DNA of 32,250 nucleotides, from contig JANLSU010000108.1 of the NCBI GenBank assembly GCA_031362565.1, positions 1-32,250 of the forward strand, in the 5' to 3' direction. A program made the position numbers and the translations under genes. The notes beneath the pieces were generated by a model. The model made no database searches, was not told the DNA's origin, and saw only the letters and a program-made list of their open reading frames with translations. Below, piece after piece: positions 9,458 through 31,716 of the stretch. The stretch's first letter is position 1; each line of letters begins with the position of its first letter. This DNA is from a bacterium. GTDB lineage: Bacteria; Krumholzibacteriota; Krumholzibacteriia; G020349025.

Positions 9458-9481
9458 GTGCCAAAGGCCCGGAGGTTCCGC

Positions 9482-10336
9482 ATGGGACATGGTCGCGATT
9501 TTCGCCAGGTATGCACGTTCACACTCCTTGCATCCGTTGTCGCTGCTTCGGCACACGCCAATTTGATCGTCAATGGCAGCTTCGAAGCGGGTCCGGCGGC
9601 GCCCAACTCGGTCGAACTCACTGCCGGGTCGACCGCGATTTCGGGTTGGGTCGTGACGCCGTCGAATATCGACTACGTCGGATCCCTCTGGAGCGCGGCG
9701 CAGGGTGTCCACAGTATCGGTCTCAATGGCAGTTCGGCGGGCGGCATCGCCCAGACCTTTGCGACCGTTCCGAGCGCCAAATATATCGCGCGCTTCTGGA
9801 TTGCCGGGGACCCGCTCAGCTCGCCCGTCATCAAGCACGTGCGCGCTTCGGCGGCCGGCCAATCGCGAGATTTTGCGGTCGACATCAGCGGCATGTGGGC
9901 CTGGGATCCGGGCTGGGCCTCGCAGATGTTTCATTTCACCGCGAACACCGCCAGTACGACGCTTACTTTCTCGAGTCTCGAGACCGGCAGTACGGGCCCG
10001 TCGATCGATTCGGTGACGGTCTCGACGGCGAACCCCGTGGACGCGGGGCCGCTTGAAACGGTCGAGGCTGCTCTGTCGCGGATGGCGCCGAATCCCATCG
10101 TCGACGTGGGCCACGTGGACTTCGGCGTCACCCGTCCCGGCGCCGTGACGCTGCGCGTGCTCGATGTTGCAGGGCGCGAAGTGGCCGTGCTGGCGAAGGG
10201 CCGTTTCACACCCGGCGCGTATCACGCGAGTTGGGACGGCCACGACGGCGCCCGCCGGGCGCCCGCCGGGGTGTATCTCGTGGAACTGCGCACCGCCAAT
10301 GCACGGCGTGTGCAACGCGTCGTTCTGTTGCGGTAA
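9482..10336 (+). CDS. Secreted choice-of-anchor C (DUF642-like) protein with a C-terminal FlgD-Ig/T9SS-like domain
   Basis: Signal peptide ending AHA; NLIVNGSFE...GWVV...IDY...W...G..SI.LNG...GGIAQTFAT; C-terminal MAPNP...VLDVAGREV...WDG...AGVYLVEL. Confidence 0.85.
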   Translation: MGHGRDFRQVCTFTLLASVVAASAHANLIVNGSFEAGPAAPNSVELTAGSTAISGWVVTPSNIDYVGSLWSAAQGVHSIGLNGSSAGGIAQTFATVPSAKYIARFWIAGDPLSSPVIKHVRASAAGQSRDFAVDISGMWAWDPGWASQMFHFTANTASTTLTFSSLETGSTGPSIDSVTVSTANPVDAGPLETVEAALSRMAPNPIVDVGHVDFGVTRPGAVTLRVLDVAGREVAVLAKGRFTPGAYHASWDGHDGARRAPAGVYLVELRTANARRVQRVVLLR

Positions 10337-10373: not shown

Positions 10374-10411
10374 CAAAGAAACGGGCCCCAGCGTTGGGGC
10401 CCGTTGTCGTT
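10374..10411. terminator. Bidirectional intrinsic terminator
   Basis: Perfect 11-bp stem AACGGGCCCCA/TGGGGCCCGTT (10380-10405) with loop GCGT, A-rich left flank and GTCGTTT right flank, between convergent genes. Confidence 0.8.
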
Positions 10412-10439: not shown

Positions 10440-10916
10440 TTACTGGTAGAGCGAGCGGACGCGTGACCAGGTGGCACTTTCGACGCCGACGGCGGTGAAG
10501 ATCTGACCGCGGATTTCGCCGCCCGGGAAGGTGGTCGAGTGGACGTTCTGGTACATGAGGCCGGCGTTCAGATTTGCTTCCTGAGCGGGGGTCAGCGGTC
10601 CGACGTTGATGGCGAAGGCGTCGGACGTCGCGCCGGCGCCGGACGTCGCGAACAGAACGGGACCGTTGGCGTTGGGGAGCGCGCAGCAGTGGACGTGCGA
10701 TGCGGTCCGGCTCGCCACGAGGCCCGTGTACGAGATCGTGCAGTGCAGGATCTTGCCGGCATCGAGGAAGAACGAGGCCGAGCCCGAGGCCGGCGATGCG
10801 TTCGGCGGATTTTCGCTGAGCCCACTGAGCGTTGCCACGTAGTTCTGCGCCGAAGCGGCGCTGGCGAAGACGGCGGTCAAAGCCGCGACGGCGAACAGAC
10901 GATGAACGAGGCGCAT
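10440..10916 (-). CDS. Secreted CHRD-domain protein with a short conserved C-terminal tag
   Basis: Signal peptide ending ASA; ATLSGLSENPPNASPASG, SHVHCC, YQNVHSTTFPGGEIRGQI (CHRD); ends VGVESATWSRVRSLYQ. Confidence 0.9.
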   Translation of the reverse strand: MRLVHRLFAVAALTAVFASAASAQNYVATLSGLSENPPNASPASGSASFFLDAGKILHCTISYTGLVASRTASHVHCCALPNANGPVLFATSGAGATSDAFAINVGPLTPAQEANLNAGLMYQNVHSTTFPGGEIRGQIFTAVGVESATWSRVRSLYQ

Positions 10917-11228
10917 GGCGGAGACCTCTTTCTGGTGCGCAAACGACATACCGGCACGCGGGGCGATCCGCGTCTCGGCGCTGTGAATCGAACCAAGGGC
11001 GGGTGACATTTCGGCTCCCGGTTCGAACTGAGGGTCGATGGTCAGGACCTTACCGCATGGCCGGAGCGGCCGTCAATTCCCCCTCCGGGAGGCGGCGCGG
11101 ACGCAGGCGCGCGGGCCGTCGAGGCATCCCGCCGCGTTAAATTTGGCGCTGCAATGGCGATCCGGCAGGGCGCGCCGGCGTCGAGCGGTCGGCGCGGTAG
11201 GTGGCGACGTGTGGCGGGACAGCCGGCT

Positions 11229-12701
11229 TCAGCGCGCCCGGGTTGTCGCCGCCGGCAATGGCCGCATGTCGTCGTATGCCTGTCCTGGAATCTCGAAGAA
11301 CGTGCGCGGCACGAGTTCGTAGCGCACCGACTCGATCACGGAGTCTTCGATCAAGTCGTTGTCGTGGTTCGAATCTTTGATCGGGTGCCACGACAATCGT
11401 GACCGGAGAATTACGCCGTCCGGGCGCTCCGCCGGCAGATCGATGCAGCGGCCGTCGAAGAGGTACAACGCCAGGCGATAGACCTCGTACATGTCGCGCG
11501 TCAGCTCCATGCCCTCCGTCGCCCAAACTTCGTTCTCGACCAGGAGGCGTGTTCCTTCGTCATCGGTCTTGCGCGCGGTGGCGGTGAATTGCGAGGTCAC
11601 GAAGCCCGCCATCGTCTCGCCCATGTGGCGATCGGTGAATTTCGGTGCACGCGGCGACAGCGCCAGGCTCGTGGCGGTCGTGGCGGAGTCGACGTACGCT
11701 TGCCAATCAGCGATGTCCTGCACTTGCCATGCACCATTCTTCGCATCGATGCGCGCCACTAACTGTTGGTGCACATCGACAATCAACTCGGTGTTGCCGT
11801 ACTGCAGGCGCGCCAAGCCGGGTCCAAAATAGTATGTGGCGTGCGCCGGCTGTTCCTCGTCGCTCCACTGAGTGGTTTCCTGGAGCACGACGCTTGGAAC
11901 TTGATCGACGCGACCGGGGCCACACCGCAATAGACCGACATCAATCCAACGGCATCGACGGCACGGATCGTGGAAGATTGGCATCGGCGGCGCATGATGT
12001 GGGCGGCGTCGCGGCACGGGAATCGTAAAGACATGGCCGGCTTGAATGGGAACGGGTTCGGCGACGAGCGGCGGCCCGGTACCGGGCTGCGGAGTCGTGA
12101 CGGGCCTCCCCGGCTGGCGCACCGGCACGCGCTCCGGCGCCGTGACGGGCTCGCCGTGCGGGCTTTGCACCGGAGTGCCTGGAACCGGCAGGGTGACCGG
12201 GTTGGGTAGGGTGCGCACGGGCTCCGGAGTCCGCGGCCGCGGCGCCGGGTTGGATGCAGAACCGCGCTCACGCGTTGGCGGTGGCGCTTGCGGCGTCGCC
12301 GGCGGCGGTTCGACGATCAAACGCCGCCGCTCGTGGACCGGCGGCGCGACGTGCGGGGATTCGCGCCCGGGTGCGGTGCGTGGCGCCGGCGCGGGTGCCG
12401 CTGGCGCTGGCGCTGCCGGTGCGGGGGCCGGGGCAGCTGGCTCCTGAGCGGCGGGTGCCGGCGGTGCTTGTGCGGGTTGTGACGGGGGCACATCCGGTGG
12501 CGTTGGCGCGGGGGCCGGCGGCTGTGCCTGTGCCGGCGCCGGCGATTCCTGCGGCGGCGCAGCCTCGGGTTTTTCGATCGATCGGGTCGGGCTGGCGGCG
12601 GACGCCGGGACCACGCTCAACGCGGTTCCAATTGCGAGTGCCATCGCAGCGACGAACGCCGCGGCAAACACCGGAACTTGCTTGCGGATCGATCGAGCCA
12701 C
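11229..12701 (-). CDS. Exported Pro/Ala-rich protein with a C-terminal DUF4412-like domain
   Basis: GAAGGGGG RBS and GTG at 12701; signal peptide; long PAPA/PQ low-complexity region; C-terminal GETMAGFVTSQF...EVWAT...FFEIP..Y pattern. Confidence 0.65.
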   Translation of the reverse strand: MARSIRKQVPVFAAAFVAAMALAIGTALSVVPASAASPTRSIEKPEAAPPQESPAPAQAQPPAPAPTPPDVPPSQPAQAPPAPAAQEPAAPAPAPAAPAPAAPAPAPRTAPGRESPHVAPPVHERRRLIVEPPPATPQAPPPTRERGSASNPAPRPRTPEPVRTLPNPVTLPVPGTPVQSPHGEPVTAPERVPVRQPGRPVTTPQPGTGPPLVAEPVPIQAGHVFTIPVPRRRPHHAPPMPIFHDPCRRCRWIDVGLLRCGPGRVDQVPSVVLQETTQWSDEEQPAHATYYFGPGLARLQYGNTELIVDVHQQLVARIDAKNGAWQVQDIADWQAYVDSATTATSLALSPRAPKFTDRHMGETMAGFVTSQFTATARKTDDEGTRLLVENEVWATEGMELTRDMYEVYRLALYLFDGRCIDLPAERPDGVILRSRLSWHPIKDSNHDNDLIEDSVIESVRYELVPRTFFEIPGQAYDDMRPLPAATTRAR

Positions 12702-13311
12702 CGCAGAACCCCCTTCGTTCTCCCTCGGCAATCGTGCGAGGTCGCTGTTTCTATCGCCGGCCGCGCCTTGCTTCAGGTCCGGATCACAGGGGAGTGGCCA
12801 CATCATAGCAGATCGCCAGAGCTCAGCTCCCGGCGCCCATCGGCTCGGTGGATCTACCCGCGCTCCTTCTGAGGTATTCCATCCCACTCGGTGAGACCCT
12901 GCGGAGGACGACGGAGTTCCCTCGCGCCGATCGAACGCCCCCGCCCGTTTACTGGCTGGTCGATCGAGGGTCGCTCACTGGCGGGCGTCGATTGGCAGCG
13001 TCATCTCGTTCGAGTGTCAACTCCGTCGACACTTCGCCCCAACTCCAGTTGACGATTTCTCTCGCGCCAACTCTCAAGAACCAGCGCCTAGAGCCTCTTT
13101 CTGTCTGCGCGGCACATGGCCGGCGTCTTGCGAGGATTGATTCGACCGTGTGCGTCGTCGGCGCCCATCGAGCGCCGCCGTGTTCATTGAAATCAGCCAC
13201 AGTCCCAGAGACTGAGCGCAGACGTTCTCCAAGCCGACTGGCCTCGCGTCGCGTTGGCCGTCGAGGGCAGCGAAAGCTCCGTCCTGCGCCAGTGTCAACG
13301 TCAGGGTTAGA

Positions 13312-13360
13312 GCCCGCGCCAGCGCCCGCGCCCGCGCCCGCTGTCAACGTCGTTGACAGC
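13312..13360. repeat. GCGCCC tandem hexamers followed by a 21-bp palindrome GCTGTCAACG-T-CGTTGACAGC
   Basis: Read directly from the sequence; palindrome at 13340-13360. Confidence 0.8.
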
Positions 13361-13424
13361 TCCGGGCCTATCCATGCGGGTGGCAGTGTCGAGTGTCCGT
13401 CGTGCGAACGACATCCGAAGATCA

Positions 13425-13583
13425 CTGTCCCGACGTGATCCGTCCTCGTCGCCGCAGTCGAAAAGTACTCGTTCTAGAACGAGTACTTGCAAGATGACAC
13501 GGCGGTGAAGGAGGCCGGTTCAAGCACGCCGCCCAGCAGAAGACAGCCTCGATGCGCGGGCTGCTGTCCCGACGTGATCCGTC
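13425..13583. repeat. 20-bp direct repeat CTGTCCCGACGTGATCCGTC (13425-13444 and 13564-13583) enclosing a 26-bp perfect palindrome (13463-13488)
   Basis: Exact match of both copies; palindrome AAGTACTCGTTCT|AGAACGAGTACTT. Confidence 0.85.
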
Positions 13584-13651
13584 GGTGTCGGCGTGGTCGT
13601 GGGCGTCGTCCTCGTCGTCGTCGTCGGCGGCAGAGACGCCGGCGCGCCCGC

Positions 13652-14818
13652 TTACAGCACGCCCGACGGTGGGTTGGGCAGGCCCTCGGCGAAGCGCGAG
13701 GGGCGGAGCGGGTGGGCGTCGAAGTTGAGCGTGCCGCCGTCCAGGATCATTTCGGCGATGAGCTGGCCGATGGCTGGGGCGTGCATGACGCCGTGGCCGG
13801 AGTTGCCGGTGGCCAGATACAGGCCTTTGACTTCGGGCACGGGGCCGACGAGGGCGTGCTTGTCGGGGGTCATTTCATAGAGACCGGCGTGACAGGCTTC
13901 GAGGTCGATGCTTGCCGATGCCAGGCAGGGCACGCGCTCGCGGGCGGTGGCGAGTAGCGGCTCGAGCCATTGCGCATCGAATGTCGTGGCGAAGGGATCG
14001 GGTGACGGCGGCACGTCGGGTTTCAAGAGCAGCACTCGGCCGTCGCGGACGCGGAGGTGGAAACCGTCGTTGCACCAAATCGTCATCGGCATCGTGGCTG
14101 GGAGTGCGGCGAAGGGTTCGGTGACGGCGATTTGGCGGCGCTCGGGTTCGACGGGAATCGTCACACCGTGCGCGGCGAGCTGGCCGGACCAGGCGCCGGC
14201 AGCGATGATGATGGTTTGGGTCGCGACCGAATGGGCGCCGAAGTCGACGCCGGTGATGCGGCGCTTGCCGGCGCGTTCTTCCATGCGCCAGCGCACCGGG
14301 CCGCAGGCGAATTCGAAGTGCACGTTGCGGCGGCGGGCGGCCGCCGCGTAGCCGTGCAAAATATCGAGGGGACGGAGGAAACCGTCGGTGGGACAGAACG
14401 TACCGCCCAGGACGCCGGTGAGGTCGGCGTGCGGATTGAGTGCTTGCGTATCGGCGCGTGAGACCTCGCGCGCTTCGGTGAGGCCGCATTTTCGTTGCAG
14501 CGCCAAGGCCGCGCGGAGGGCGGCGAGCTGTCCGGCGTCGGTCGCCAAGAAAAGATAACCAGCGGGGGTGTAGCCCGGGTCCACACCGATTTCGTCGCGG
14601 AAGCGCCGCAGCTTTTCGCGCGCCAGAAGCGACAAGCGGATATTGACTTCACTCGCGAACTGGCAGCGAAAGCCGCCGGTGGCGCGCGCCGTGCTGCCGG
14701 CGCCGAGCTCCGGTGCCCGCTCCAGTACGAGCACGGAGACACCGCTGTGCTCGGACAGGTGGGCGGCGATGCTGGTGCCGACGACACCGGCGCCGATAAT
14801 GACAATATCAGGCTGCAT
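13652..14818 (-). CDS. FAD-dependent oxidoreductase, DadA/sarcosine oxidase beta/glycine oxidase family
   Basis: DIVIIGAGVVG Rossmann motif; GSTARATGGFR; IAAGAWS; AGLYEMTPD; GNSGHGVMHAPAIG. Confidence 0.9.
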   Translation of the reverse strand: MQPDIVIIGAGVVGTSIAAHLSEHSGVSVLVLERAPELGAGSTARATGGFRCQFASEVNIRLSLLAREKLRRFRDEIGVDPGYTPAGYLFLATDAGQLAALRAALALQRKCGLTEAREVSRADTQALNPHADLTGVLGGTFCPTDGFLRPLDILHGYAAAARRRNVHFEFACGPVRWRMEERAGKRRITGVDFGAHSVATQTIIIAAGAWSGQLAAHGVTIPVEPERRQIAVTEPFAALPATMPMTIWCNDGFHLRVRDGRVLLLKPDVPPSPDPFATTFDAQWLEPLLATARERVPCLASASIDLEACHAGLYEMTPDKHALVGPVPEVKGLYLATGNSGHGVMHAPAIGQLIAEMILDGGTLNFDAHPLRPSRFAEGLPNPPSGVL

Positions 14819-15818
14819 TTTGTCCCTGCTCTCGTGGCCGTACGTGCAGGAACGCGACGCCGCCCGCGAGCATGGTCGGAAGCACCTGAATGGCATGGTA
14901 GGCGAGCGCGAAAGCGAGGGCGCGTTCGGGCGTGAACCCGGCGAGGGCGAGTGCAAACACCGTCGCGGCTTCGAACGGGCCGAGGCCGCCCGGCGTTGTC
15001 GGCACGATGAGCGCAACGTCGATGGCGAGGATGACCAGGAACGCCACCCACAGGTTGACGTGCACGCCGACGGCGTACGCGGCGCAGATCAGAATGCCGG
15101 CGTCCGCATAGCGGGCGGCGAGCGTCACGATGCCAACGATGAGTGCGCCAGGGCCCGATCGGAGTGCCGAGGCGCCACGTCCGAGCCAGGCCGCGAACGA
15201 TTGCACCCGGTGCCCGTGGAAGACGACGAGAATGGCGAGCAGTGTCGCCACGCCGGCGGCGACTGCGAGCCATCCGAAGCCGCGCCGCACTGAGTGCGGC
15301 AGATCGAGCATCCACGGCAGCGGCATGGCGACGAGAATCAAGCTGGTCGTTTCGGTGGCGGCCTCCATCACTTGGATGCCGGCCGAGGTCGCCAGCGAAA
15401 TGCCATGCTCGCGCACCAGCGTTGCCCGCAGCACTTCGCCGGCGCGCGCCGGCAGCACGCTCGACGCGGCGCTCGCCATCAAGGTGTAGAGGTACGTGCG
15501 CCTAAAAGGCACCCGGCCGTGCGGGCGCAGCATCACATACCAGCGAACGGCCTTGAGACCCAAGTGCAGAGCGAGATTGCCGATCGCCGCCAGGATCAAG
15601 AAGCGCCAGTCGGCATGGGCGAGGGTCTTGCGAGTGGCGCTCAGATTGAGTTTCAGCAGCGCGTAGATGCAGAACCCGAGCACGAGGATCGAAAGCGCGA
15701 TGCGGCCCCAAAAGAAACGCCGGCGCCCACCCAAGGTGAACGCCGGCGCGTCATCGGGTGCGAGGCGCGGCGGCCCGTTCCCAGTGGGGCGCTCCGCATC
15801 GGCCTCGCTCGAACTCAT
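14808..15818 (-). CDS. Lysylphosphatidylglycerol synthase TM-domain (flippase-like, YbhN/AglD2) protein
   Basis: LKAVRW, VLPARAGEVLRA, PTTPGGLGPFEAA, ALAFALAYHA; multiple TM helices; ATGA overlap with the upstream stop. Confidence 0.88.
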   Translation of the reverse strand: MSSSEADAERPTGNGPPRLAPDDAPAFTLGGRRRFFWGRIALSILVLGFCIYALLKLNLSATRKTLAHADWRFLILAAIGNLALHLGLKAVRWYVMLRPHGRVPFRRTYLYTLMASAASSVLPARAGEVLRATLVREHGISLATSAGIQVMEAATETTSLILVAMPLPWMLDLPHSVRRGFGWLAVAAGVATLLAILVVFHGHRVQSFAAWLGRGASALRSGPGALIVGIVTLAARYADAGILICAAYAVGVHVNLWVAFLVILAIDVALIVPTTPGGLGPFEAATVFALALAGFTPERALAFALAYHAIQVLPTMLAGGVAFLHVRPREQGQNAA

Positions 15819-17152
15819 CCGATTCCCAACGCTTGGCTTTGCTCGCGCAAGACCTCGTCCAGGATCGAACACGCTTCGGCGGCGACGGCGCTCGGCACAT
15901 TGAGCGGCGGATACAAGCGAATGCTCGAACCACTCACCATGACGAGCAAGCCGCGGCGCGCGAGTGCCTTGTAGACCTCGCCCAACTGTTCTTTCGAGAG
16001 CGGCCGGTGCTCGTCGGGCGAACCCAGTTCGATGCCGATCATCAAGCCACGGCCTTGCACGGCGGTCACCATCGGAACCTTGCCGACGAGCGACTGCAGG
16101 TTGGTGCGGATCTCGCCGCCGACCCGCCCCGCATTCTCGACCAAGCCCTCACGCTCGAAAATGTCGAGGGTCGCCTGCACGGCGCGGGCGGCAAGTGGGA
16201 AGCCGCCGTAGCTGGACGAGCTGTGGCTGGGATTGGCGTACGGCGCCGCGGCCATGATCTTGGACGACGAAATGACCGCCGTCACCGGATAGCCGCCGCC
16301 CATGCCCTTGCCGACGATCATGATGTCGGCCTTCACGCCATCGTATTCCGAACAGAACATGCGGCCCGTGCGCCCGAAGCCGGTGAGCGTTTCGTCGATG
16401 ATGAACAGCGCCTTGTGGTCGTCCGCCATGCGGCGCAGTTCTTTTAGATAACCTTCCGGCGGCACGAGATTGCCGGCGCGGCCCTGAATAGGCTCGACGA
16501 TAATGGCGGCCAGCGAGTCGGCTGAATCGCGCTTCAATCGTTCGCGCGCTTGATCGACGCAGGCGAATTCGCAACTGGGGAACTTGAGGCGCAGCGAACA
16601 CTGGCTACAATATGCATACGGCGTGCTGTGGAAACCCGGCGCCACCGGACCCAGGCCGCGTTTCTCACCGTCGGTGAGCGCCAGGGCGCCCATCGTCTTG
16701 CCGTGAAAACCGTTCCAGAAACTCAGGAACTCGAATTTCTTGGTGTAGGACTTGGCGAGGCGGAGAGCCGCTTCGACTGCTTCGGCGCCGGTCGAGTAAA
16801 GCTGCACGCGATCGAGCTCGGGCGGCAGGACGCGCTTCAGTGCTTCGAGCATCTCGGCGCGCGCCGCCGAGCTGAAACCGCCGACCGTCCATTCGGACAT
16901 CTGGCGCGACATCGCCTCGACCCAGCGCGGGTGCGCATGGCCGATGCTGTTGACGCCGCTGGCACCGAAAAAATCGAGATAGCGGCGGCCGTCTTGATCG
17001 AAGAGGAACGTCCCTTCGCCGCGCGCGATCGACAGCTGCGACCACAGCACGACCTGCTGCAACCCGGGACCGAGCATGCTTTGCTCGCGCTCCCAAGCCA
17101 CGCGGGTGCGCGGTCCGGGCATGCCGAAATTCGTTCGAGTGTCCACGGACAT
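15815..17152 (-). CDS. Class III PLP-dependent aminotransferase (GabT/ArgD family)
   Basis: DGRRYLDF, STGAEAVEAALR, FHGKT, IVEPIQGRAG, IDETLTGFGRTG, PLP lysine in VGKGMGGG, QGRGLMIGIE; AAGGAG RBS. Confidence 0.92.
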   Translation of the reverse strand: MSVDTRTNFGMPGPRTRVAWEREQSMLGPGLQQVVLWSQLSIARGEGTFLFDQDGRRYLDFFGASGVNSIGHAHPRWVEAMSRQMSEWTVGGFSSAARAEMLEALKRVLPPELDRVQLYSTGAEAVEAALRLAKSYTKKFEFLSFWNGFHGKTMGALALTDGEKRGLGPVAPGFHSTPYAYCSQCSLRLKFPSCEFACVDQARERLKRDSADSLAAIIVEPIQGRAGNLVPPEGYLKELRRMADDHKALFIIDETLTGFGRTGRMFCSEYDGVKADIMIVGKGMGGGYPVTAVISSSKIMAAAPYANPSHSSSSYGGFPLAARAVQATLDIFEREGLVENAGRVGGEIRTNLQSLVGKVPMVTAVQGRGLMIGIELGSPDEHRPLSKEQLGEVYKALARRGLLVMVSGSSIRLYPPLNVPSAVAAEACSILDEVLREQSQALGIG

Positions 17153-17212
17153 TCCGGGTGTCTCCTTGTCGATGCTGTGGGCGTGCCGGCCGTGTGCCTG
17201 GCGCGCTCCAGA

Positions 17213-17989
17213 CTACGCCCGGCGCGCGTCGCGAGTGGAGTCGCGACGGACAACGAGCGCCCGATAGACGAGCCGCGTGCGCTGCACGGCGGTGACGAAC
17301 GAGAAGAAACCGATGACGGTGAGGGCGCCGAGCAGCACATGGCAGCGCGGCGTGACGGCGTCGGGTTCGATCCACCGGGCGGCGAGTGGCCCGATGAGAA
17401 GCCCGAGGCAGAGCCAGATGATGCGTTCGTGGCGTTGCATCCAGCCGACAGCGCAGTCGACTGACATGGCCTCGCCCTTGGCGCGGACATAGCTGACGAG
17501 CAGCGAACCCACGAGGGCGATGCAGACGAGCACGAAGGCAAGCGAGTCTTCGCGGTAGTAATAGAGCAATCCGAGGAACGCGGCCGCGTCGTTGACGCGG
17601 TCGGCGGTTGCATCCAAGAGTTCGCCCGCGTCGGACGCGGTGCCGGTCTCGCGCGCGATGATCCCGTCGAGGGTATCGAGCGACGATCCGAGGAGCAGCA
17701 TCCAGCCGCCGAAAATGAGTTCGCCGCGCGCGACCAGGACTGCCGCCGCGACGCTCAGGACGACTGAGAGCGCCGTACAGACGTTGGCGGTGATACCGAC
17801 CCGCATCGCGCCATGGGCCATGACCCGGGCGAGCTGGAAACCGGCTTCCACAAAGGGCCTGGGGACGAACGGTGACGAGGCCATTTTGTCGGTGCGCGCG
17901 TCACGCAACCGGCGGATGCCGCGCATTTTGGTGGCGACCGTTCCGCCGACCAGCATCGCGGCGCCGAGAGGGAGGAGTCTTTCGATCAT
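17213..17989 (-). CDS. CDP-alcohol phosphatidyltransferase (PI/PIP-synthase-like)
   Basis: ITANVCT; signature DTLDGIIARETGTASDAGELLDATADRVND; LVSYVRAKGEA...GWMQRHER. Confidence 0.9.
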   Translation of the reverse strand: MIERLLPLGAAMLVGGTVATKMRGIRRLRDARTDKMASSPFVPRPFVEAGFQLARVMAHGAMRVGITANVCTALSVVLSVAAAVLVARGELIFGGWMLLLGSSLDTLDGIIARETGTASDAGELLDATADRVNDAAAFLGLLYYYREDSLAFVLVCIALVGSLLVSYVRAKGEAMSVDCAVGWMQRHERIIWLCLGLLIGPLAARWIEPDAVTPRCHVLLGALTVIGFFSFVTAVQRTRLVYRALVVRRDSTRDARRA

Positions 17990-18200
17990 CAGGAATGAAC
18001 TCGCAACTGGAATTCGTGGGCCCAGGAACTCTATAGTCGAGCCGCGTAGGCACTGGCTCGATTCGGTGCAGGCTACCATCCGCCAGGCGCCCCGTCCACC
18101 GCCTTCGACTCCTGTCGGGTCTGGAGTCCAGGGGCCTCGAACCGGCGGGGCCCATTCAACCCCAAGAATCGACCGCCGGACGACTCAAAGGAGCCCGCGA

Positions 18201-19211
18201 GTGTTGCAAGGCGCCATCATCGGCTGCGGGAACATCGCGCTTCGGGGCCACCTGCCGGCGTTCCGCTGCGACGCAGATCTTGCGGCACGGGCGCGAATCG
18301 TCGCCGTGGTCGACATGGCGGCGCCCGGCCCGGAACACGCCGACCTGCTGCAAGGCGCCCGTTTCTACCGGGATTTGGCCGCGTGTCGGCGCGCTGAGCA
18401 GCTCGACTTCGTCGACATTTGCGCGCCGCCCAACACGCATGCCGAAGCGATTTGCGCCGGTGCGGCAGCGGGGCTGCACGTGTTGTGCGAGAAGCCGCTC
18501 GCCGAACGCAACGCTGCGACGGCACCCATCGGGCGTGCGGTGCGCGATGCCGGCATCGTGTTCGTGCCGTGCCATCAATACAAGTATGCGCCGCTTTGGA
18601 GTGCGATCGAGCGCTGTATCGTGGGCGGCGAACTGGGGCGCGTGACGGTAGCGCGTTTCGAAGTGCTGCGCACTCAAGCCGACCCGGGGACTGCGAAATG
18701 GAATCCGGCGTGGCGGACGTCGAAGGAATTGGGCGGCGGCGGCATCCTCACCGATACCGGCGCGCACTATTTCTATTTGGCGCGCTGGATGTTCGGCATG
18801 CCGCGCCAGGTGACGGCGGTGCTGCGGACGCTCAAGCATGCGGCGTATGGCGTCGAAGACACGGCGGCCGTGACGCTGGAGTATGAGAATTGCATCGTGC
18901 AGCTGGGGCTGACTTGGGCGGCGAACGGGCGCGGGAATTCGGCGTCCGTGGCCGGCACCGAGGGTTCACTCGAGTACGACGGCACGCATCTCGTGCTCGC
19001 GAACGCGGCGGGCAGCCGCGAGATCCCGATTGGCGACGTGTCGGACAAGTCGCAGTACGTGGCGTGGTATGCGGCACTCGGCCGCGAGTTTGTGCGGCGC
19101 GTCGAAGCGCGTGATGTGAAGTACGACTTGCTCGAGGAAGCCGAGGCCGTCATGCGGCTTCTGGAAGTGACCTACCAAGCCGGGGCGGAGCATCGCACGC
19201 TCGACGTTTAG
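18201..19211 (+). CDS. Gfo/Idh/MocA-family NAD(P)-dependent oxidoreductase
   Basis: AIIGCGNIA, HVLCEKPLA, GGGILTDTGAH, VEDTA; AAAGGAG RBS before GTG at 18201. Confidence 0.9.
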   Translation: MLQGAIIGCGNIALRGHLPAFRCDADLAARARIVAVVDMAAPGPEHADLLQGARFYRDLAACRRAEQLDFVDICAPPNTHAEAICAGAAAGLHVLCEKPLAERNAATAPIGRAVRDAGIVFVPCHQYKYAPLWSAIERCIVGGELGRVTVARFEVLRTQADPGTAKWNPAWRTSKELGGGGILTDTGAHYFYLARWMFGMPRQVTAVLRTLKHAAYGVEDTAAVTLEYENCIVQLGLTWAANGRGNSASVAGTEGSLEYDGTHLVLANAAGSREIPIGDVSDKSQYVAWYAALGREFVRRVEARDVKYDLLEEAEAVMRLLEVTYQAGAEHRTLDV

Positions 19212-20005
19212 CGGCCCGCGCGCCGTTGCGCCAGGACCCACTTCCAGAGATTTTCATCACCGTAGGCTTGATCCCACGAACCGTGGCCGACGCCGGGGTA
19301 TTCGGTGTAATGCGGTTCGCCGCCGACGGCTTTCAGGGCCGCGGCCATGCGTTGTGATTCGGTCACCGGAATGATCGGATCATCGGCGCCATGGAAGATC
19401 CAGGCCGGAATCTTGGCGATACGTTGCGCGACATGCGTGTACGGGTCGGCCTGGCCGATGGCTTCGGGTGCGAGATGCACCGAAGTCGTATGCACCGACG
19501 GAACGATGCCGCCACACACTGGCACGATGGCGGCAAAACGTTCCGGCGCGATAAACGCCAGGTGCCAGACTCCGTAGCCGCCCATCGACAGGCCGGTGAG
19601 TGTCACCCGGTCGGGGTCGATCGAGAACTCGCTCTCGGCTGCATCCAACGCTGCAAGTGCAGCCGTGGCCGGTTCGCCAAGCCAAGAGCTATCGGCGGGC
19701 GCCTGCGGGAAGACGACGATGCACGGGAAGCGCTCCGGCGTCCAGCGAATGGCGCTCGCGAGCCCGACCTGCGTTTGGCGAAAACCGTCGCTACCCCGTT
19801 CACCGGCACCATGCAATGCCAAGAGCGCCGGCCAACGCACTCCCGCCGTATAGCTCGCCGGCACGAAAATCTGATAGCGATACGCATTGCCGCCGACGAC
19901 AACGCTGCGATTCAAAAATCCGGTTTCTTGCACGGCGCGCGCTCCCGTCGGCCAAGCGATCGACGCGAGGCAAGCCAACGCTAGCATGATTCGGATGAGT
20001 CGCAT
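19208..20005 (-). CDS. Secreted alpha/beta-hydrolase (phospholipase/carboxylesterase, predicted-peptidase COG4099-like)
   Basis: Signal peptide; LHGAGERGSDG; nucleophile GLSMGG; WIFHGADD; YTEYPGVGHGSW. Confidence 0.88.
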   Translation of the reverse strand: MRLIRIMLALACLASIAWPTGARAVQETGFLNRSVVVGGNAYRYQIFVPASYTAGVRWPALLALHGAGERGSDGFRQTQVGLASAIRWTPERFPCIVVFPQAPADSSWLGEPATAALAALDAAESEFSIDPDRVTLTGLSMGGYGVWHLAFIAPERFAAIVPVCGGIVPSVHTTSVHLAPEAIGQADPYTHVAQRIAKIPAWIFHGADDPIIPVTESQRMAAALKAVGGEPHYTEYPGVGHGSWDQAYGDENLWKWVLAQRRAGR

Positions 20006-20027
20006 GCGCGCCTCCGAAGGGGGGGTG

Positions 20028-20063
20028 AAACAACACCGCCCCCGGGAAAACCCGAGGGCGGTG
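20028..20063 (-). terminator. Intrinsic terminator downstream of the 20087-20884 gene
   Basis: On the minus strand: CACCGCCCTCGGG-TTTT-CCCGGGGGCGGTG (13-bp stem with one G-U pair) followed by TTGTTT. Confidence 0.75.
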
Positions 20064-20086
20064 CCGGAAATAGACTCGAACCGGAG

Positions 20087-20884
20087 TTACCGATACAAGC
20101 CCTTGACGGCCGTCCAGTTGGTCGCTTCGACGCCAACCGTTCCAGCTTCGAACCCGATGTTCTTCCACTCCGCGCGCGAGTTCGTTCCGGGCGGCGACGC
20201 GAAGACGAAGAACTGATGATGCCCACCGACCCACGACGGCTGCAGGATGCCCCACTGGCCGTGCGGCGGATCTTCGGCTGCATTGCCCTGGTCACATGTC
20301 AGCACGCCGCTCGTGTACGAATTCGAAAGATACACGAGGTTGTACTGGATGGTACCCGGGCTGGCCAACGACAAACCATTCGGATGGTAGATGACTTCCA
20401 GATGGATCGTGTTGCCCTTGGCGTAGTTCAAACCAAAAGCCCCCGTGAACGAGAAGAACGGCAGACGGCCGCCGAAGCAGGCAATCTCGCCATCCGTCGA
20501 GCGCACGTTGAAGCGGCCGTCGACGTACTGCGACCACCAGGGGTTGATGCTGAGTCCGGCTTCGCCCTCGCCCGTTCCCGTAATGAGCAAGTCGGCCGAG
20601 AACTTGAAGTCGTCGCCGTTCTGGAAGACCGCATCGGTCGCGCCACCGTCGGCCGAGAACTTCCAGCCGTGCAGATTGGCGCCGCCGACGCAAGCGGTGT
20701 TGGCGTCATCGGTGACGATGCTCGCCGGGTAGGTGTTCACCGTGGTCAAAATCGACCCGGGACAGTCGTTGAAGACGCGCGTTTGGACCGTCGCGCCGTT
20801 TACAGCGGGTGCCGTTGCATAGGCACTGGCCGCGAGGGCCAGTACTGCAGCGACCGCAGTCGAGGTGATAAGGATCCGCCTCAT
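20087..20884 (-). CDS. Secreted beta-rich hypothetical protein with a short conserved C-terminal tag
   Basis: AGGAGG RBS; signal peptide ending AYA; Gly/Asn/aromatic-rich body; ends VGVEATNWTAVKGLYR. Confidence 0.85.
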   Translation of the reverse strand: MRRILITSTAVAAVLALAASAYATAPAVNGATVQTRVFNDCPGSILTTVNTYPASIVTDDANTACVGGANLHGWKFSADGGATDAVFQNGDDFKFSADLLITGTGEGEAGLSINPWWSQYVDGRFNVRSTDGEIACFGGRLPFFSFTGAFGLNYAKGNTIHLEVIYHPNGLSLASPGTIQYNLVYLSNSYTSGVLTCDQGNAAEDPPHGQWGILQPSWVGGHHQFFVFASPPGTNSRAEWKNIGFEAGTVGVEATNWTAVKGLYR

Positions 20885-20924
20885 GGTGTTTCTTCCTCCT
20901 AGGATGATTCGTTTTCGGACGGAC

Positions 20925-20939
20925 CTGGAATTATTCCAG
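20925..20939. promoter_or_regulatory. Palindrome CTGGAAT-T-ATTCCAG, possible operator
   Basis: Perfect 7-bp arms about 40 nt upstream of the start codon at 20884, inside the 159-bp intergenic gap. Confidence 0.35.
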
Positions 20940-21043
20940 TTTCTTACGGACATTGGAACCACTTCGCAAACCAGAAACGTACTGCTCTGACATTGTCGAC
21001 TCGTTGCCATCGCATCACCACTCTTTCGAGTGTTCGGGTTGTT

Positions 21044-22624
21044 TCACTTCACTACGGTGAACTGCCGTTTCGAACTCTTGCCATCGACCTGCATCTCGTA
21101 GAAGTACACGCCACTGCGGAGATGCGAGGTGTTGAACGGCACGACGTGCGTGCCGGGTGCCTGGGTACCGTCGAGCACCGTCTGCAAGCGACGCCCCGCG
21201 GCGTCGTAAACCGAGAGCACGACGCGGGTCTGGCGTGCGAGCCGGAAGGGAATCCAACCGCCAGCCTGCAACGGATTCGGGTAGCTTTGTTCGAGAACCG
21301 CCGGACCCAGTTGCTCGGTGCTGGGTTCGACGCCGACGGTCGTCGCCGGCACGAAGCCGGCGCGCGTCAATCCTAGTTGAATATCGGCGTTCTGCATGAA
21401 ACGGTTCCACACCGACTGGTTCCGGAAGTTCTCGATCATGATAATAATCGGACCTTGGTCGATGCCGAGGTAGTCGGTACCGACCCAATTAACCGTCGGA
21501 TTGAACGCGTCTTTGAATCCGTACGTGGACCAGGTCGTGCCGCCGTACACGTTGTAGAGATTCTGCAGCGCCGAGATACAGACGGCCGGCGAAAACGCGA
21601 TCGAACCGCCGATGGCGCTCGGCGTAATCGTGCCGTCGTCGTTCTGCGCCGGCGGGGCGCCGCGCGCGTTGTATCCGGTCGGCACGTCGGACGCCGTGAT
21701 GCCCCAAGTATCGGCGCCATAGCCGACGCGGTTCGCAGGGTTCGCGATGCAGTACGCGCGCTGCGCCAGCGTTGCGCGCCGCGAATTCTCCCAATACGTA
21801 ATGCCGTGCGCCGTCATATACGGGTCTTTGATATACCGGAAATCGACCCAGCAATGCGAATACTGGTGCCCGAAGAGCGGCGGGAAGTTCACATAGCTGT
21901 AGCCGTACCAAGTTTGCCAGGAATAGCCGTTGGTCCACGTCGTCCAGTTGTTGGCCGGAATCGCATGCGTCGGCGAGCCGAGCGCCATGATGTAAAGAAT
22001 CATCGCCTCGTTGTAGCCGACCCAGCGCCCAAAGTTCAAAAAGCCATTGCCCCCCGGCTTCCAGCCCATATACAGGCCGGCGCCAAAGTTGCGCATGAAT
22101 TCCCAGTCAGCCCGTTGGTAAATCTGATCGCAGAGCGTCCGCACTTGCACGTCGACCGGGTCGGAAGTCGAGAAGTACTGTTTCACATCGATGACGCCCG
22201 CGAAAAGCAGCGCCGTATCGATCGTCGACAGTTCGCAATCCCAAGTCCGGGTCGCCGTCGTCATGTCGAGGAAGTGATAATAGAGGCCCTTGAAGCCGAT
22301 GGCGCCGGCCGTCGCGCCGTTTTGCGTGCCGTTCCATAGCGTCTGCAGTGTCGTCAGAACCCGCGCTTCGCCATTGGCGCGCGTCACCCAACCGTGATCG
22401 ATCCCGATGCAAATCGACGTCAGCCCAAAGCCCATCGCCGCGATACTGGCCGGCGATCCGGGCGTACTGCGGTCCTTGATGCAGCCGTTCGCCGGGTTTG
22501 CCTCGTTCCAGAAGTAGTCGAAGGCGCGCTGTTGCAGCGCATCCAGCAACTGGTCGTCCGTGAGAGCCTGCGCGTGCGACGCCCAGAGGACGATGGTGAC
22601 GATGGCTGTAAGTCTGCGAATCAC
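21044..22624 (-). CDS. Glucoamylase-like (PF10091) / GH144 endo-beta-1,2-glucanase-like protein with a T9SS-type C-terminal domain
   Basis: QQRAFDYFW, SIAAMGFGL, GLYYHFLD, ELSTIDTALL, YNEAMILYI, PLFGHQYSH, WGITAS, YLGIDQGP; CTD QSYPNP...VYDAAGR...SGVYFY. Confidence 0.88.
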   Translation of the reverse strand: MIRRLTAIVTIVLWASHAQALTDDQLLDALQQRAFDYFWNEANPANGCIKDRSTPGSPASIAAMGFGLTSICIGIDHGWVTRANGEARVLTTLQTLWNGTQNGATAGAIGFKGLYYHFLDMTTATRTWDCELSTIDTALLFAGVIDVKQYFSTSDPVDVQVRTLCDQIYQRADWEFMRNFGAGLYMGWKPGGNGFLNFGRWVGYNEAMILYIMALGSPTHAIPANNWTTWTNGYSWQTWYGYSYVNFPPLFGHQYSHCWVDFRYIKDPYMTAHGITYWENSRRATLAQRAYCIANPANRVGYGADTWGITASDVPTGYNARGAPPAQNDDGTITPSAIGGSIAFSPAVCISALQNLYNVYGGTTWSTYGFKDAFNPTVNWVGTDYLGIDQGPIIIMIENFRNQSVWNRFMQNADIQLGLTRAGFVPATTVGVEPSTEQLGPAVLEQSYPNPLQAGGWIPFRLARQTRVVLSVYDAAGRRLQTVLDGTQAPGTHVVPFNTSHLRSGVYFYEMQVDGKSSKRQFTVVK

Positions 22625-22634
22625 GTGTATCTCC

Positions 22635-23651
22635 TCATAGTCCCAACACGAACGTCAGGCGTTGCATTTCCGAGAGCGTCGCGTGGTACGCCCACGCATA
22701 GTCCACCGAGAACTGCCGGTCGCCGAACGAGCTACGAAAGCCCACGCCCGCGGTGCCAGCCAGCTCCGAGTCGCGCTGGTAGAGATCCTGGTATCCGGCG
22801 CGGATCGATAAAGCGTCTCTCCAGGTCCATTCCCAGCCTAGGTTGAGATTCTCCGAGTTGTCGCTCGGGTGTTGTGCGTCGATCACGAACAGCAACTTGC
22901 TCGAGGCACTCATTTGGTGCGGGAAGCTCAAGCCGACACGGAATTTGATCGGCACCGGGAAGTTGTCGGTGGTCTGCTGTCCCGGCAGTGAGCCGTTGTC
23001 GCCGTTGCGCGACGGGTCGGCGTCGAACTGAATCGAGAGATCGCGGCCGTTGAACCGGCCATTCGTCCCGAAGTTGGTCAAGCTGGCTCCGAGCTGGATG
23101 CCGCCTTCGGTCAAGCGGTACAGGGTCCCAAATCCGAAGGTCATCGTGCGCATGGAGCTGTGCCAGATGGTTTCCTGAACAAAGTTGGCTTGGACGCCGG
23201 CCGTGAACCGGTGGGTGACATCGCGCGCGTAGGCGACGCTCAATCCTAAGTCGTCGGCCGAGAAGCGCTCGCCGGTGCCCTCCGGGTGCTCGACGGTGCG
23301 CACGTCCATGTCGCCCGAACTCAACGTCGTGACGCTCGCGAAGAATTTGCCGGCATTCGCGGTTGGAATCGCCAAGCTCACATAGTCGACGCGGATATCG
23401 GCCAGCCAGAAACTGTGCGTAAATTGCACGAACGGTTTCTCCAACGCGCCCAGCGCACCCGGGTTGTAGTACACGCCCTGGACAGGGTCGAGTACCGCGA
23501 CGCCGGCATTGCCCATGGCCGCGATACGCGCCCCCGGTTCGATCAGCATGAACTGGCCGACGGTGGTCCCCGTCTTGGTTTGAGCCGACGCAACCCCCGC
23601 CGAAAACGCCAGCAGTACCGGGACGAGCCGCGTCGCGAGGTGTTTTTGCAT
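22635..23651 (-). CDS. PorV/PorQ-family outer-membrane beta-barrel protein
   Basis: KTGTTVGQFMLIEPGARIAAMGNAG, YYNPGALG, HSFWLADI, RAGYQ, VDYAW; ends in an amphipathic strand; AAGGAGG RBS. Confidence 0.88.
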   Translation of the reverse strand: MQKHLATRLVPVLLAFSAGVASAQTKTGTTVGQFMLIEPGARIAAMGNAGVAVLDPVQGVYYNPGALGALEKPFVQFTHSFWLADIRVDYVSLAIPTANAGKFFASVTTLSSGDMDVRTVEHPEGTGERFSADDLGLSVAYARDVTHRFTAGVQANFVQETIWHSSMRTMTFGFGTLYRLTEGGIQLGASLTNFGTNGRFNGRDLSIQFDADPSRNGDNGSLPGQQTTDNFPVPIKFRVGLSFPHQMSASSKLLFVIDAQHPSDNSENLNLGWEWTWRDALSIRAGYQDLYQRDSELAGTAGVGFRSSFGDRQFSVDYAWAYHATLSEMQRLTFVLGL

Positions 23652-23665
23652 GGCCCGTCCCTCCT

Positions 23666-26600
23666 TCACTTCAAGATGGCGAATTTGCCGATGCTGGCGC
23701 CCAGCGCAAATCCATCGACCTGAAAAATATACAAGCCGGGTGCGACGTCGAGGTTGTCCTTGGTGCGCAAGTTCCATGGGATCGCACCACTCGTCGAACC
23801 GTCCTGCCGCAACGTCTGCACGAGTTCACCGCGCACCGTGAAGATGCGCAACGAAGCGTTCAACGGGATGTTCCGGAACTCCATACGGCGTTCGCCGCGT
23901 CCCGAAACTGCGAATCGAGCCGGTTCAAAGCTGGCCGAACCGACATAGGGATTCGGCACGACGTAAGGCTTGGCGGCGAATTGGGCCGCCGCGAGTTCCG
24001 CGTCGACTTTTTCGCCGTGGGCTTCGAACACGAACACATCGTCGGTCCCGAACGGTTGCCGTAGCCGCAATTCGAAAACGTCGCCGCGGCGTGGCGCGAT
24101 GATCGCCTGTCCGGACGCAACGCTGGTCGGGTCGATCTTCAAACGCCAAGTTGCTTTCACCACTCCCGGCTCGGACGGCAGGTACGTGACCAGATCGAAG
24201 TATTCTGTGAGGGTGCTGAGCGTCCCCGTCGAAACCAACGGCGTCGAGTACCGCAGGTCGAGCTGCAAGTCACCGGACGGCGTGTGCGCGAACGCGATGA
24301 ATTTCGTCGGATTGGCGCGGAGCGGGAAATTCGCCAGCGACGTATCCCGCACGACGTCGTCGAACGTGATGGTGACATCCTCGGGGAAGCCCGGCCGCCG
24401 CGCGTTGATCGGCGCGACCGGCAGGTACTCGACGAGCAGGCGGATATTGGTGCCACTCCCGCGCGCGAAGCCGGTACCAGCCGCGTCGATTTCGACGGTC
24501 TTGGCGGTGCGCACGAGCGGCAATAAGCCGCCGCCGACCGCTCCGACGCCTTGGGCATCGAAGTCGGCGCCTGTCCGGAAGAGCAACTTGCTTGTGGTGC
24601 TATCGGTGAGTGTGTAGGCCGCGGCATGCACGCTGTCGGGCGATCCCAAGAATGCCAATTTCATCAAATGGCCGTCGAGAACGAGGCTGGAGTTGACAAC
24701 GCTCACGCCAACGGTACCGATGCCGTCCCCCGCCACGTGGGCCGCCGTCGCGACAGTTGCCGGCACGTAGCCCGCGATCTTTGGTTCCGGCCGCACCGCC
24801 ACGGCGTTCAGCGGCGTAATGAGTCCGCCGCGCAACGTTTGCGACAGCGTGATGGCGTTTTCCGACGGGAAGAAGCCGAACGAGTTGGAGCCGAAATCGT
24901 AGGCGCACACCGCATAATAGTATTGCTGTCCAGCGGTGACCGTCGAATCCACCCAGGTATGCGTGATGCCCGTCTCGTTTCCGAGATCGTACGCCACACC
25001 CTCGACTGTATCCGTCGTGAATCCGAATTTGCCGTCGATCAGGTCGAACTGCGCGATCGGCTTGCCGTTGCCGATCGGGCCCGTGCCGTTGCCGGTCGAG
25101 ATGACTTTGGGGTCGAGGAAGTTGGGATCCGTCGACCGGTAAATGCGATAGCCTTCGAAATCGAGTTCGCCGGTCACCGGGTCGGCACTGTGCTCGGCAA
25201 TGTCATTCCACGACAACCGGACGCGCCCACCGCTCGCGTCGGCCGTCACGGTTGGCAGTTTGGGTGGCACCGCGAACTGGTAGTTGGCGTTGTAGATCTT
25301 CTGAACAGTTTTCACGGTGCGCCGCAGTTCGTTGAGGTCAGCGCCGTACGCGAGGGCCAAGCTGAAGCGTTCGGTCTTCCCGGCACGCAGTTTGAATGGC
25401 CCCGACGCGAAGACGAACGCGATGTTGTAGTTGGCGGCGAGCGCTGCATCGAACCGCACGGTCGAGTCGGGGTCCGTGAATTTTTGATATAAGCGCGCCG
25501 GCCAGTTTTGCGAATCGTTGAAGAACACAATGCCGTCGGCTTCAGGATCCGGATTTCCAAGGCCAGCTTTGATGCGGTTAAACTTGAACCCCGTGAGGCC
25601 GATTTGGTCGGACTCATTCAAATCGGTGCGATCGAAGTTTGCCTCGCCGAGAGTCGGAATGCCGTCGCCCTCGCCGGTGTCGTGGGTATCGGGGACGCCG
25701 TCGGCGCCGAGGTCGTGCAGGTCCGCGACCCAATCCATGTCCTCATCACCGGTCCACCACGTTCCGGCCCGGTACGCCGGCCGGGTCTCGAGCGAACCGT
25801 ACGTCGCCTCGAAGCGCGTCAAACCATAGTGGCTCGTGACGTAGTCGCGAATCTCCGGCTGCCCGACGATCTGCTGGCCGGGACCGCCGTCCCGTTGTTC
25901 GTCGATGATCCCGTCGAGGTCGTTGTCGGCGCTGTCGAACGAGTTGCCCGGGGTTTCGAGGTACGCATAGCCCATGTAGCCGGTCGTACTGCAGTCGCCG
26001 CTCAGGTCGCGGCCGTGCCGGCGATTGTCCCACGTGTAGACTAAGTTTAGCACATCCGTATCGAACGTCCGGTCGAAGTAGGCGTTGTCATCATCCGATT
26101 CGAAGATGCCGTCGCATGAAAGCGTCGAGCCGCCGACACCCGAGTCCATGTACAAGCCGAAAACGATGTTGTCGTCGTAATCCGTCGTGCCTTCGTTCGT
26201 AATGTCGTAGTGCCAGAACACGACGTTACGCGCCTGTGGATTGGCCCACTGGAAACCGCGCACTTCGATACGCAGCCCGAGTCCGCGGCGCGTCGAATCG
26301 CGCGCATCGGGATAGAAATCCCAGGCGTCGTAGTAGTCGTCGTCCATGACCGAATAGCTCTCCTGGTCGGCCGCTGCGCGCTTGCCAAAGTACCCGTTCC
26401 AGGAGCCGCGCCAGCCCGGATCGTCCGTGTCACGGGCTCGGTCTGGCCAGCTGTTCGGCCAGGTGCGGGGATCGTTGCTGATCGCCGGTGAACGGCCGGC
26501 GTTGACCGCCGGGTCGGCTTGAAAGTAGCCCGGCCGCGGCTCGAAACGCATGATGCGATTGAAATAGGGGCTCGTGCCCTGCCGTTCCCGGAAGCCGGTT

Positions 26601-29646: not shown

Positions 29647-29765
29647 TCGGGCACCTTTTCGAATCGAGCCCGGACGCAGGACGGCGAAAATGCGAAGCGT
29701 TGCGCTCTCGCCGCCCATGCGTCCAAGCCCCGGTCTAACTCCATTGTCTCAGCGTGGCGCCGCGC

Positions 29766-31655: not shown

Positions 31656-31716
31656 GGGTGGAGCCTCCAACGGAGTGAGTGAACAGTCGAGACGGATGGG
31701 AAGTAAAAGCTGAGCG

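Follow-up and report, generated by a model that had tools for sequence, protein, structure and literature searches.

The stretch of DNA considered here, called the window below, is 32,250 nucleotides long and constitutes contig C86 of a bacterial genome of 5.41 Mb (133 contigs, 65% G+C). On its minus strand are two genes for exported proteins of unrelated fold, one with a CHRD domain and the other with a concanavalin A (ConA)-like beta-sandwich, whose products end in 16 residues that are alike. It is this ending, referred to from here on as the tag, that is dealt with, together with its probable role as a C-terminal sorting or anchoring signal of proteins that leave the cytoplasm by the Sec route. 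The open reading frame (ORF) of the CHRD protein spans 10440-11009, with M32 as its likely start and with homologues of 150-160 residues; that of the ConA-like protein spans 20087-21010 (307 residues) and its likely start is at 20884 (Table 1). When the two proteins are compared by BLASTP the sole alignment is the 16-residue tail, in which 8/16 positions are identical and 12/16 positive (E 0.003), and a likeness confined to the tails of two secreted proteins is what the initial annotation, made from the letters alone, had claimed. The hairpin or terminator that it had placed behind each of the two genes is also there and is strong in both cases (for the ConA-like gene, -45 kcal/mol over a 93-nt stretch, z -3.33). 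A scan of Pfam and NCBIfam assigns the ConA-like protein to no family.

Table 1. Tagged genes of the window, their tails and hairpins, and neighbouring genes
Feature	Position	Strand	Basis
CHRD-domain exported protein, 158 residues with signal peptide	10440..10916	minus	Pfam CHRD, 85.4 bits
C-terminal tag VGVESATWSRVRSLYQ of the CHRD protein	10443..10490	minus	translation
Terminator-like hairpin 3′ of the CHRD gene	10380..10405	minus	11 pairs (8 GC), then T-run
Exported ConA-like beta-sandwich protein, 265 residues, family without Pfam model	20087..20884	minus	homologues, AlphaFold2, Foldseek
C-terminal tag VGVEATNWTAVKGLYR of the ConA-like protein	20090..20137	minus	translation
Strong hairpin 3′ of the tagged ConA-like gene	20031..20066	minus	16-bp stem
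GH144-type (PF10091) protein with type IX secretion system type A C-terminal domain	21044..22624	minus	Pfam, 258 bits; TIGR04183, 31.9 bits
PorV/PorQ-family outer-membrane barrel paralogue	22635..23777	minus	NF033710, 47.9 bits (below cut-off); Pfam PorV, 25.6 bits
DUF642 protein with FlgD_ig-type type IX secretion system C-terminal domain	9458..10336	plus	Pfam; TIGR04183 match 10085-10324

The likeness of the two tails is more than chance, which is excluded genome-wide. In a set of 50,273 stop-to-stop ORFs of at least 60 residues, drawn from all six frames of the source genome, a core motif W..[VILM][KR].[LMIV][YFW]. directly followed by a stop ends 66 ORFs, against 0.37 expected from the rate at which it occurs inside ORFs, and the number rises to 101 (66 exact, 35 extended) when 0-8 extra residues are allowed before the stop. 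A hidden Markov model (HMM) built from 57 of the tails has 113 matches in the same genome at E<=0.01, and a looser regular expression collects 32 more endings, approximately half of which resemble variants of the tag (e.g. TWSNVKAAYR, TWGEVKQRYR). The consensus can be written (C)-x-V-[GA]-V-[EQ]-x-x-[TS]-W-[SG]-x-[VI]-K-x-L-[YF]-R, then a stop or 1-8 further residues. The Trp is fixed by the search motif and its conservation in the set of 101 is not independent, but at positions where the search left a choice a single residue, or a pair, predominates: Lys in 96/101 (Lys or Arg being allowed), Leu in 86/101 (four residues being allowed) and Tyr or Phe in 100/101. The last residue of the motif is Arg in 71/101. 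The V-[GA]-V-[EQ] element, conserved seven residues upstream, lies outside the search motif altogether. Cys is the commonest residue 9 and 10 positions before the tag Trp (23 and 17 of the 101 respectively), often within a C..C pair, and may form a disulfide that closes the end of the cargo domain.

Gene calling on the basis of codon usage yielded 4187 genes; 93 of them are tagged, and 196 possess a C-terminal domain (CTD) of the type recognized by T9SS, the type IX secretion system; in none of the 4187 is the strict motif found more than 12 residues from the stop. Could the tag be the by-product of a conserved DNA element, a terminator or repeat for instance, that overlies the 3′ ends of genes? 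The hairpins behind both window genes are in keeping with the idea, but the nucleotides are not. At conserved tag positions six codons are in use for Arg, four for Leu and both the TCN and the AGY set for Ser; tagged genes stop at TGA, TAA and TAG alike; mean identity in the 60 nt 3′ of their stops is 27.6%; and the motif occurs only in frame at the ends of ORFs. Since synonymous codons vary freely, selection acts on the protein, and an origin in DNA is refuted to the point where its probability is negligible.

The proteins on which the tag is found have little else in common. BLAST groups the 101 tagged ORFs into 58 families, with sizes of 22, 6, 4, 3 and 3 followed by ten pairs and 43 singletons. 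For representatives of 18 of the 58 there are Pfam matches at E<=1e-3, in some cases below the curated cut-off, and for the other 40 there are none; the bodies recognized include fn3, beta-helix, PD40, NHL, CHRD, phosphoesterase, trypsin-like, ice-binding-like, LTD, DUF4082 and Temptin_C. Signal-peptide-like N-termini, as judged by the stricter of two home-made tests, are present in 79 of the 93 tagged genes and 159 of the 196 CTD genes, against 1405 of 3898 other genes, and with the cruder test the comparison is 92/101 tagged ORFs to 403/1000 controls. Tagged proteins have a predicted median length of 242 residues, compared to 790 for CTD-bearing ORFs. Tagged genes, approximately 2-3% of all genes, are scattered over 79 loci, 71 of them single genes. 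The abundance that the initial annotation required of a sorting signal, with restriction to the C-termini of signal-peptide proteins having many unrelated bodies, is what the genome displays.

Several features of individual carriers merit mention. Lipobox-like signal peptides, called with a crude heuristic, occur in 14/93 tagged, 10/196 CTD and 156/3898 other genes, an example being the family at C63:17-21 kb. The largest tagged family has 22 members of ~190-250 residues (e.g. C29:25740-27059, C27, C75), and its representative has no Pfam match. Their N-termini resemble ...SSIGVFF.PDGSDC..., and large CTD-bearing proteins on contigs C16, C33, C90 and C12 have the same module in their N-terminal part. 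As to a conserved neighbour or operon partner, the candidate was the largest family among the neighbours, which is present at 9/79 loci and has 54 members genome-wide; by our arithmetic ~5.6 would be expected among the 436 neighbour genes where 9 are seen, and it was rejected.

Structure prediction bears on what the tag might look like. For the ConA-like protein (265-residue form, 112-row alignment) AlphaFold2 gives a model with a predicted local distance difference test score (pLDDT) of 91.5, in which a beta-sandwich extends to residue 247 and is followed by coil holding VGVE (250-253) and then by a helix, 257-264, of sequence WTAVKGLY and pLDDT 68-69. Foldseek relates its body to legume and other ConA-like lectins and to PL7 lyases (E ~3e-6, TM-score ~0.4). 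Across the 112 homologues aligned for this family, W257 has a conservation of at least 90% and K261 does not vary. The CHRD protein (158 residues, 73 rows, pLDDT 91.1) is modelled with its body to approximately residue 141, then coil, then a helix, 150-156, that starts from the Trp and has a pLDDT of 72-82. In both models the pLDDT of the tail is below that of the body. The tag is accordingly modelled, in two unrelated folds, as a flexible linker plus a helix of 7-8 residues outside the folded body, and a helix that begins at the Trp in both is in agreement with the early suggestion of a short helix without a transmembrane segment. From the spacing of its residues the helix would be amphipathic, with W, V and L/Y forming one face and K and R the other.

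A helix of this kind could conceivably be an anchor in its own right, inserted into the interface of a membrane leaflet or resting on anionic lipopolysaccharide or phospholipid, with no receptor and no machinery. C-terminal amphipathic helices tether some periplasmic penicillin-binding proteins, and the predicted helix has a hydrophobic (W, V, L, Y) and a basic (K, R) face, is detached from the body and tolerates 0-8 extra residues after the motif; that no partner gene was found near tagged genes also fits. Yet a helix of just 7-8 residues is short for the purpose, and the conservation of the Lys, the Leu and the Tyr or Phe, at the levels counted above, is far tighter than amphipathicity needs. 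Such tight conservation, together with the upstream V-[GA]-V-[EQ] element, suggests that a protein recognizes the tag, and anchoring without machinery seems unlikely.

If recognition by a protein is involved, the question is how the tag relates to signals already known. No model of Pfam-A or of NCBIfam (release 20) covers the two window tails or the set of 57 tails, the only returns being single chance hits at E>=0.1. T9SS models in particular match 0/57 tails, with the CTD of the neighbouring GH144-type protein serving as positive control at 31.9 bits. A sequence profile search of the PDB with the tag matched no solved structure, and no description of it was found in the literature searched, supplements and subscription-only papers being outside its scope. 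T9SS CTDs themselves are plentiful in the source genome: TIGR04183 has at least 149 matches, and an iterated HMM finds CTDs in 236 ORFs, within 10 residues of the stop in 205. The notion that the tag is the remnant of such a CTD was rejected when alignment of the tag profile to the CTD profile of the genome by hhalign gave a probability of 0.1%. Another notion, part of the initial annotation, took VGVE for a linker that the tag and T9SS CTDs have in common. VGVE is indeed encoded at 21326-21337, upstream of the CTD of the GH144-type protein, but the generalization fails, as [VIL][GAS][VI][EQ] is near the start of the CTD in only 4 of the 205 C-terminal CTDs. VGVE is part of the tag, and its occurrence before that one CTD is a coincidence within the window.

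What the tag and other signals do have in common is a position, and the exchange of one for another at that position is the strongest functional clue available. In the source genome a tagged protein (on C97) and two CTD-bearing paralogues (on C18 and C92; 48% and 41% identity) have the whole body in common and diverge at one point, where the one has the tag and the others a linker plus CTD. A CTD-bearing paralogue exists for 31 of the 101 tagged proteins. The ConA-like protein has 1106 homologues at E<=1e-5, without a Pfam domain, and among the best 120 of these 91 have the strict tag and most of the others differ from it slightly (Q/T/S/N for L, F for W); a T9SS CTD is present in one, and a hydrophobic helix with a basic cluster, i.e. 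an anchor of the transmembrane type, in two. For CHRD, the best 120 of 304 single-domain homologues (E<=1e-5) were read directly after ...GGEIRGQI, where the conserved domain ends: 58 have a strict and 8 a loose tag, 23 have PEP-CTERM-like tails with a transmembrane segment plus basic residues (many carrying PF07589 in precomputed Pfam annotation) and 31 have something else, including tag variants with W to L/M/I as well as proteins lacking a tail. The proposal that the tag takes the place of a T9SS CTD, extended here to PEP-CTERM, is therefore upheld by position swaps in paralogues and in homologues of both window proteins. Alternation of tag, T9SS CTD, PEP-CTERM and transmembrane anchor at one position is what would be expected of an envelope-sorting or anchoring signal. 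As an aside, the two ConA-like homologues with the transmembrane-type ending (P0094 and P0119) end in ...STWG before the hydrophobic helix and basic cluster, and the first residues resemble the start of the tag helix.

Swapping is also pertinent to the possibility that the tag is for docking, either to a scaffold in the manner of dockerin to cohesin or to a CTD-bearing carrier with which it would be co-exported, rather than being read by a translocon. The small size of the cargo relative to CTD-bearing proteins, the flexible and exposed tail of the AlphaFold2 models and the presence in the genome of more than 200 CTD proteins that might act as carriers all lend themselves to this. Neither a conserved neighbour nor a repeated protein with receptor domains came to light, though, and interchange with PEP-CTERM and transmembrane anchors fits an address in the envelope better than it does the assembly of enzyme complexes. 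Docking is regarded as improbable, somewhat more so than the receptor-free anchor.

The tag is not a peculiarity of one genome. Its HMM has 5-113 matches in each of 21/21 relatives from 7 families and 15 genera, and at E<=1e-4 it matches in 143 of 151 sampled genomes of the phylum. The other 8 each have 4-19 weaker matches (E<=0.05) at the ends of 200-400-residue frames, and the search for a tag-free contrast within the phylum was given up on that account. All 10 genomes of a second, small phylum have 6-43 matches each at E<=1e-5. A strict back-translated pattern identifies at least 129 stretches in species genomes. Among the 80 matches listed the record titles name Candidatus Eisenbacteria 17 times, Latescibacter- 7, Fibrobacter- 6, Krumholzibacter- 5, Gemmatimonadota 3 and Zixibacteriota once, the remaining 41 having just "bacterium" and no other phylum appearing. 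Titles were rejected as a guide to spread, as a Fibrobacteraceae-, a Krumholzibacteriota- and one Latescibacteria-titled metagenome-assembled genome (MAG) belong to the phylum of the window itself, their contig coordinates being identical to those of matches in its 151-genome sample; a Gemmatimonadota-titled MAG belongs to the second small phylum with its 10 genomes. Likewise, for MAG loci L059-L138 the phylum names in public titles disagree with the grouping of genomes used here. One ConA-like homologue is assigned to Candidatus Eiseniibacteriota by its source.

This breadth is relevant to whether the tag could be a quality-control or degradation signal, the tail being read by a tail-specific or PDZ protease of the periplasm. 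Short C-terminal degrons are known in bacteria and provide a precedent, and the location of the tag is strictly C-terminal. Against this, a signal retained phylum-wide on ~2-3% of genes and in 58 families would be a curious one for degradation, the basic last residue and the 1-8 added residues are unlike the recognition of a free non-polar C-terminus, and interchangeability with anchoring signals has no ready place in such a scheme. A degradative role is very improbable.

The reading preferred here is that, in Candidatus Eisenbacteria and a small sister phylum, the tag sorts or anchors the Sec-exported proteins whose C-termini it forms, and this reading is considered probable, if some way short of assured. 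We infer that its function is probably sorting, and its reader, the destination of its carriers and any cleavage are likewise matters of inference. Mechanistically, the linker (V-G/A-V-E...) would hold the 7-8-residue amphipathic helix out from the folded cargo; following Sec export a receptor dedicated to it, periplasmic or in the outer membrane, would bind the helix and would bring the cargo, mostly small, to the cell envelope or surface or fasten it there. The tag would then do for small proteins the job done by the ~85-residue T9SS CTD for large proteins of the same genome, and by PEP-CTERM for homologues in other phyla.

Who might the reader be? The source genome has T9SS components, namely SprA, at least six PorV/PorQ-like barrels, including that of the window and all below the PorV cut-off, and three PorU sortases above cut-off, two of which are a near-identical tandem pair. 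SprA is present in 10/10 tag-bearing genomes tested (G000, G154, G158, G160, G161, G163, G213, G231, G265 and G266). According to one account, CTDs of type A are read by PorV shuttles and those of type B by PorP/SprF shuttles (PMC12618676), and the shuttle scheme is a model for a T9SS-linked version of tag reading. That the tag is read by something that works with the type IX pathway, such as a shuttle barrel of the PorV/PorQ family, is a guess, and one that is more apt to be wrong than right; reading by an unrelated, undescribed receptor is equally open. The possibility that a second PorU sortase is the enzyme for the tag does not hold as a general correlate, as five other tag-bearing genomes have one PorU each. 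The tandem PorU arrangement itself (G000:C85:55836-64629) is a near-identical duplication of a PorU-type sortase gene plus a small upstream ORF, the C-termini of the two copies being the same, that adjoins the best PorV-like gene and is either a real duplication or an assembly repeat.

A number of points weigh against a sorting tag, or against its association with T9SS. Calls of signal peptides were made with a home-made heuristic whose background is 36%. No enriched neighbour family was found around the 79 tagged loci, and no receptor. Co-occurrence with SprA is non-discriminating, the genomes compared being all T9SS-positive, and one T9SS-positive genome, G155, has SprA but no HMM match, its tag-like endings numbering one at most, at the edge of a contig, so that the presence of T9SS is not enough to predict the tag. 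The additional PorU copies of the source genome are not general, and the tag has no similarity to the T9SS CTD that hhalign could detect. A more radical proposal, tentative and on balance doubtful, is that an undescribed envelope-sorting route exists in which a bare helix of ~10 residues, lacking both transmembrane segment and folded domain, is read by a receptor, a translocon or an enzyme for anchoring that has no relationship to T9SS, sortases and exosortases, the route serving 2-3% of the proteome of a whole phylum.

Turning to the surroundings of the two genes in the window, the PorV/PorQ paralogue is encoded two genes upstream of the tagged ConA-like gene and in the same orientation, and the DUF642 gene is convergent with the CHRD gene. 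Positions 20087-31769 of the minus strand are occupied by a run of co-oriented genes that resembles a glycan-utilization locus. Its order starts with a CBM9 protein having a FlgD_ig-type CTD and a CarboxypepD_reg+Plug+barrel outer-membrane protein, similar to TonB-dependent receptors; next are a 1238-residue protein without a Pfam match, ending in ...GKFAILK, and the PorV-like barrel; and last are the GH144-type protein with its CTD and then the tagged ConA-like protein.

C-terminal sorting signals have repeatedly led to envelope machineries, with sortases, exosortases, rhombosortase and T9SS as examples. Here the tag marks ~100 proteins per genome in an uncultured phylum of soil and sediment, and its architecture, with no transmembrane helix and no domain, fits no known class. 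Should T9SS be what reads the tag, a minimal peptide would suffice as a signal for that system; otherwise a new pathway would be involved. In either case the HMM would label thousands of metagenomic "hypothetical proteins" as belonging to the envelope or surface and would provide a handle for phylogenetic profiling of the receptor.

Among known systems the T9SS type A CTD (TIGR04183/PF18962 Por_Secre_tail and its FlgD_ig-like variant) invites the closest comparison. Like the tag, it is at the extreme C-terminus of unrelated Sec-exported proteins, in genomes that have both, and the two are exchanged for one another at the same end of the body in paralogues and homologues. Extra residues after the signal are tolerated by the CTD, as by the tag, and it is a folded Ig-like 3+4 beta-sandwich of ~85 residues, according to PMC11285876. 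The tag differs in having 16-20 residues, predicted to be coil plus short helix, and smaller cargo, and its transport by T9SS is putative. The tripartite signals (PEP-CTERM/exosortase, LPXTG/sortase, GlyGly-CTERM and MYXO-CTERM) are also short C-terminal motifs on unrelated signal-peptide proteins and lineage-restricted, and PEP-CTERM has the identical position in CHRD homologues. Their defining second and third parts, as set out in 10.1101/2023.06.07.544157, are a transmembrane segment and an Arg-rich cluster. In the tag there are at most 8 residues after the motif and no hydrophobic stretch, a single R/K being at motif position +8, and no cognate intramembrane or transpeptidase enzyme was identified.

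Two further parallels are more distant. The beta-signal of outer-membrane proteins, read by BAM in diderms, is short and C-terminal and has an aromatic residue close to its end, and in these respects the tag is similar. The tag motif closes with Arg or Lys, or up to 8 extra residues come after it, and it is predicted to be a helix rather than a strand; the two tagged cargoes modelled are soluble beta-sandwiches, whereas the cargo of the beta-signal is barrels. In eukaryotes PTS1 (-SKL) and KDEL are short C-terminal address tags. Though the domain of life and the sequence are different, the resemblance is of kind, in that peptides of very few residues, independent of structure and at the C-termini of cargo otherwise unrelated, would presumably be read by a soluble or membrane receptor.

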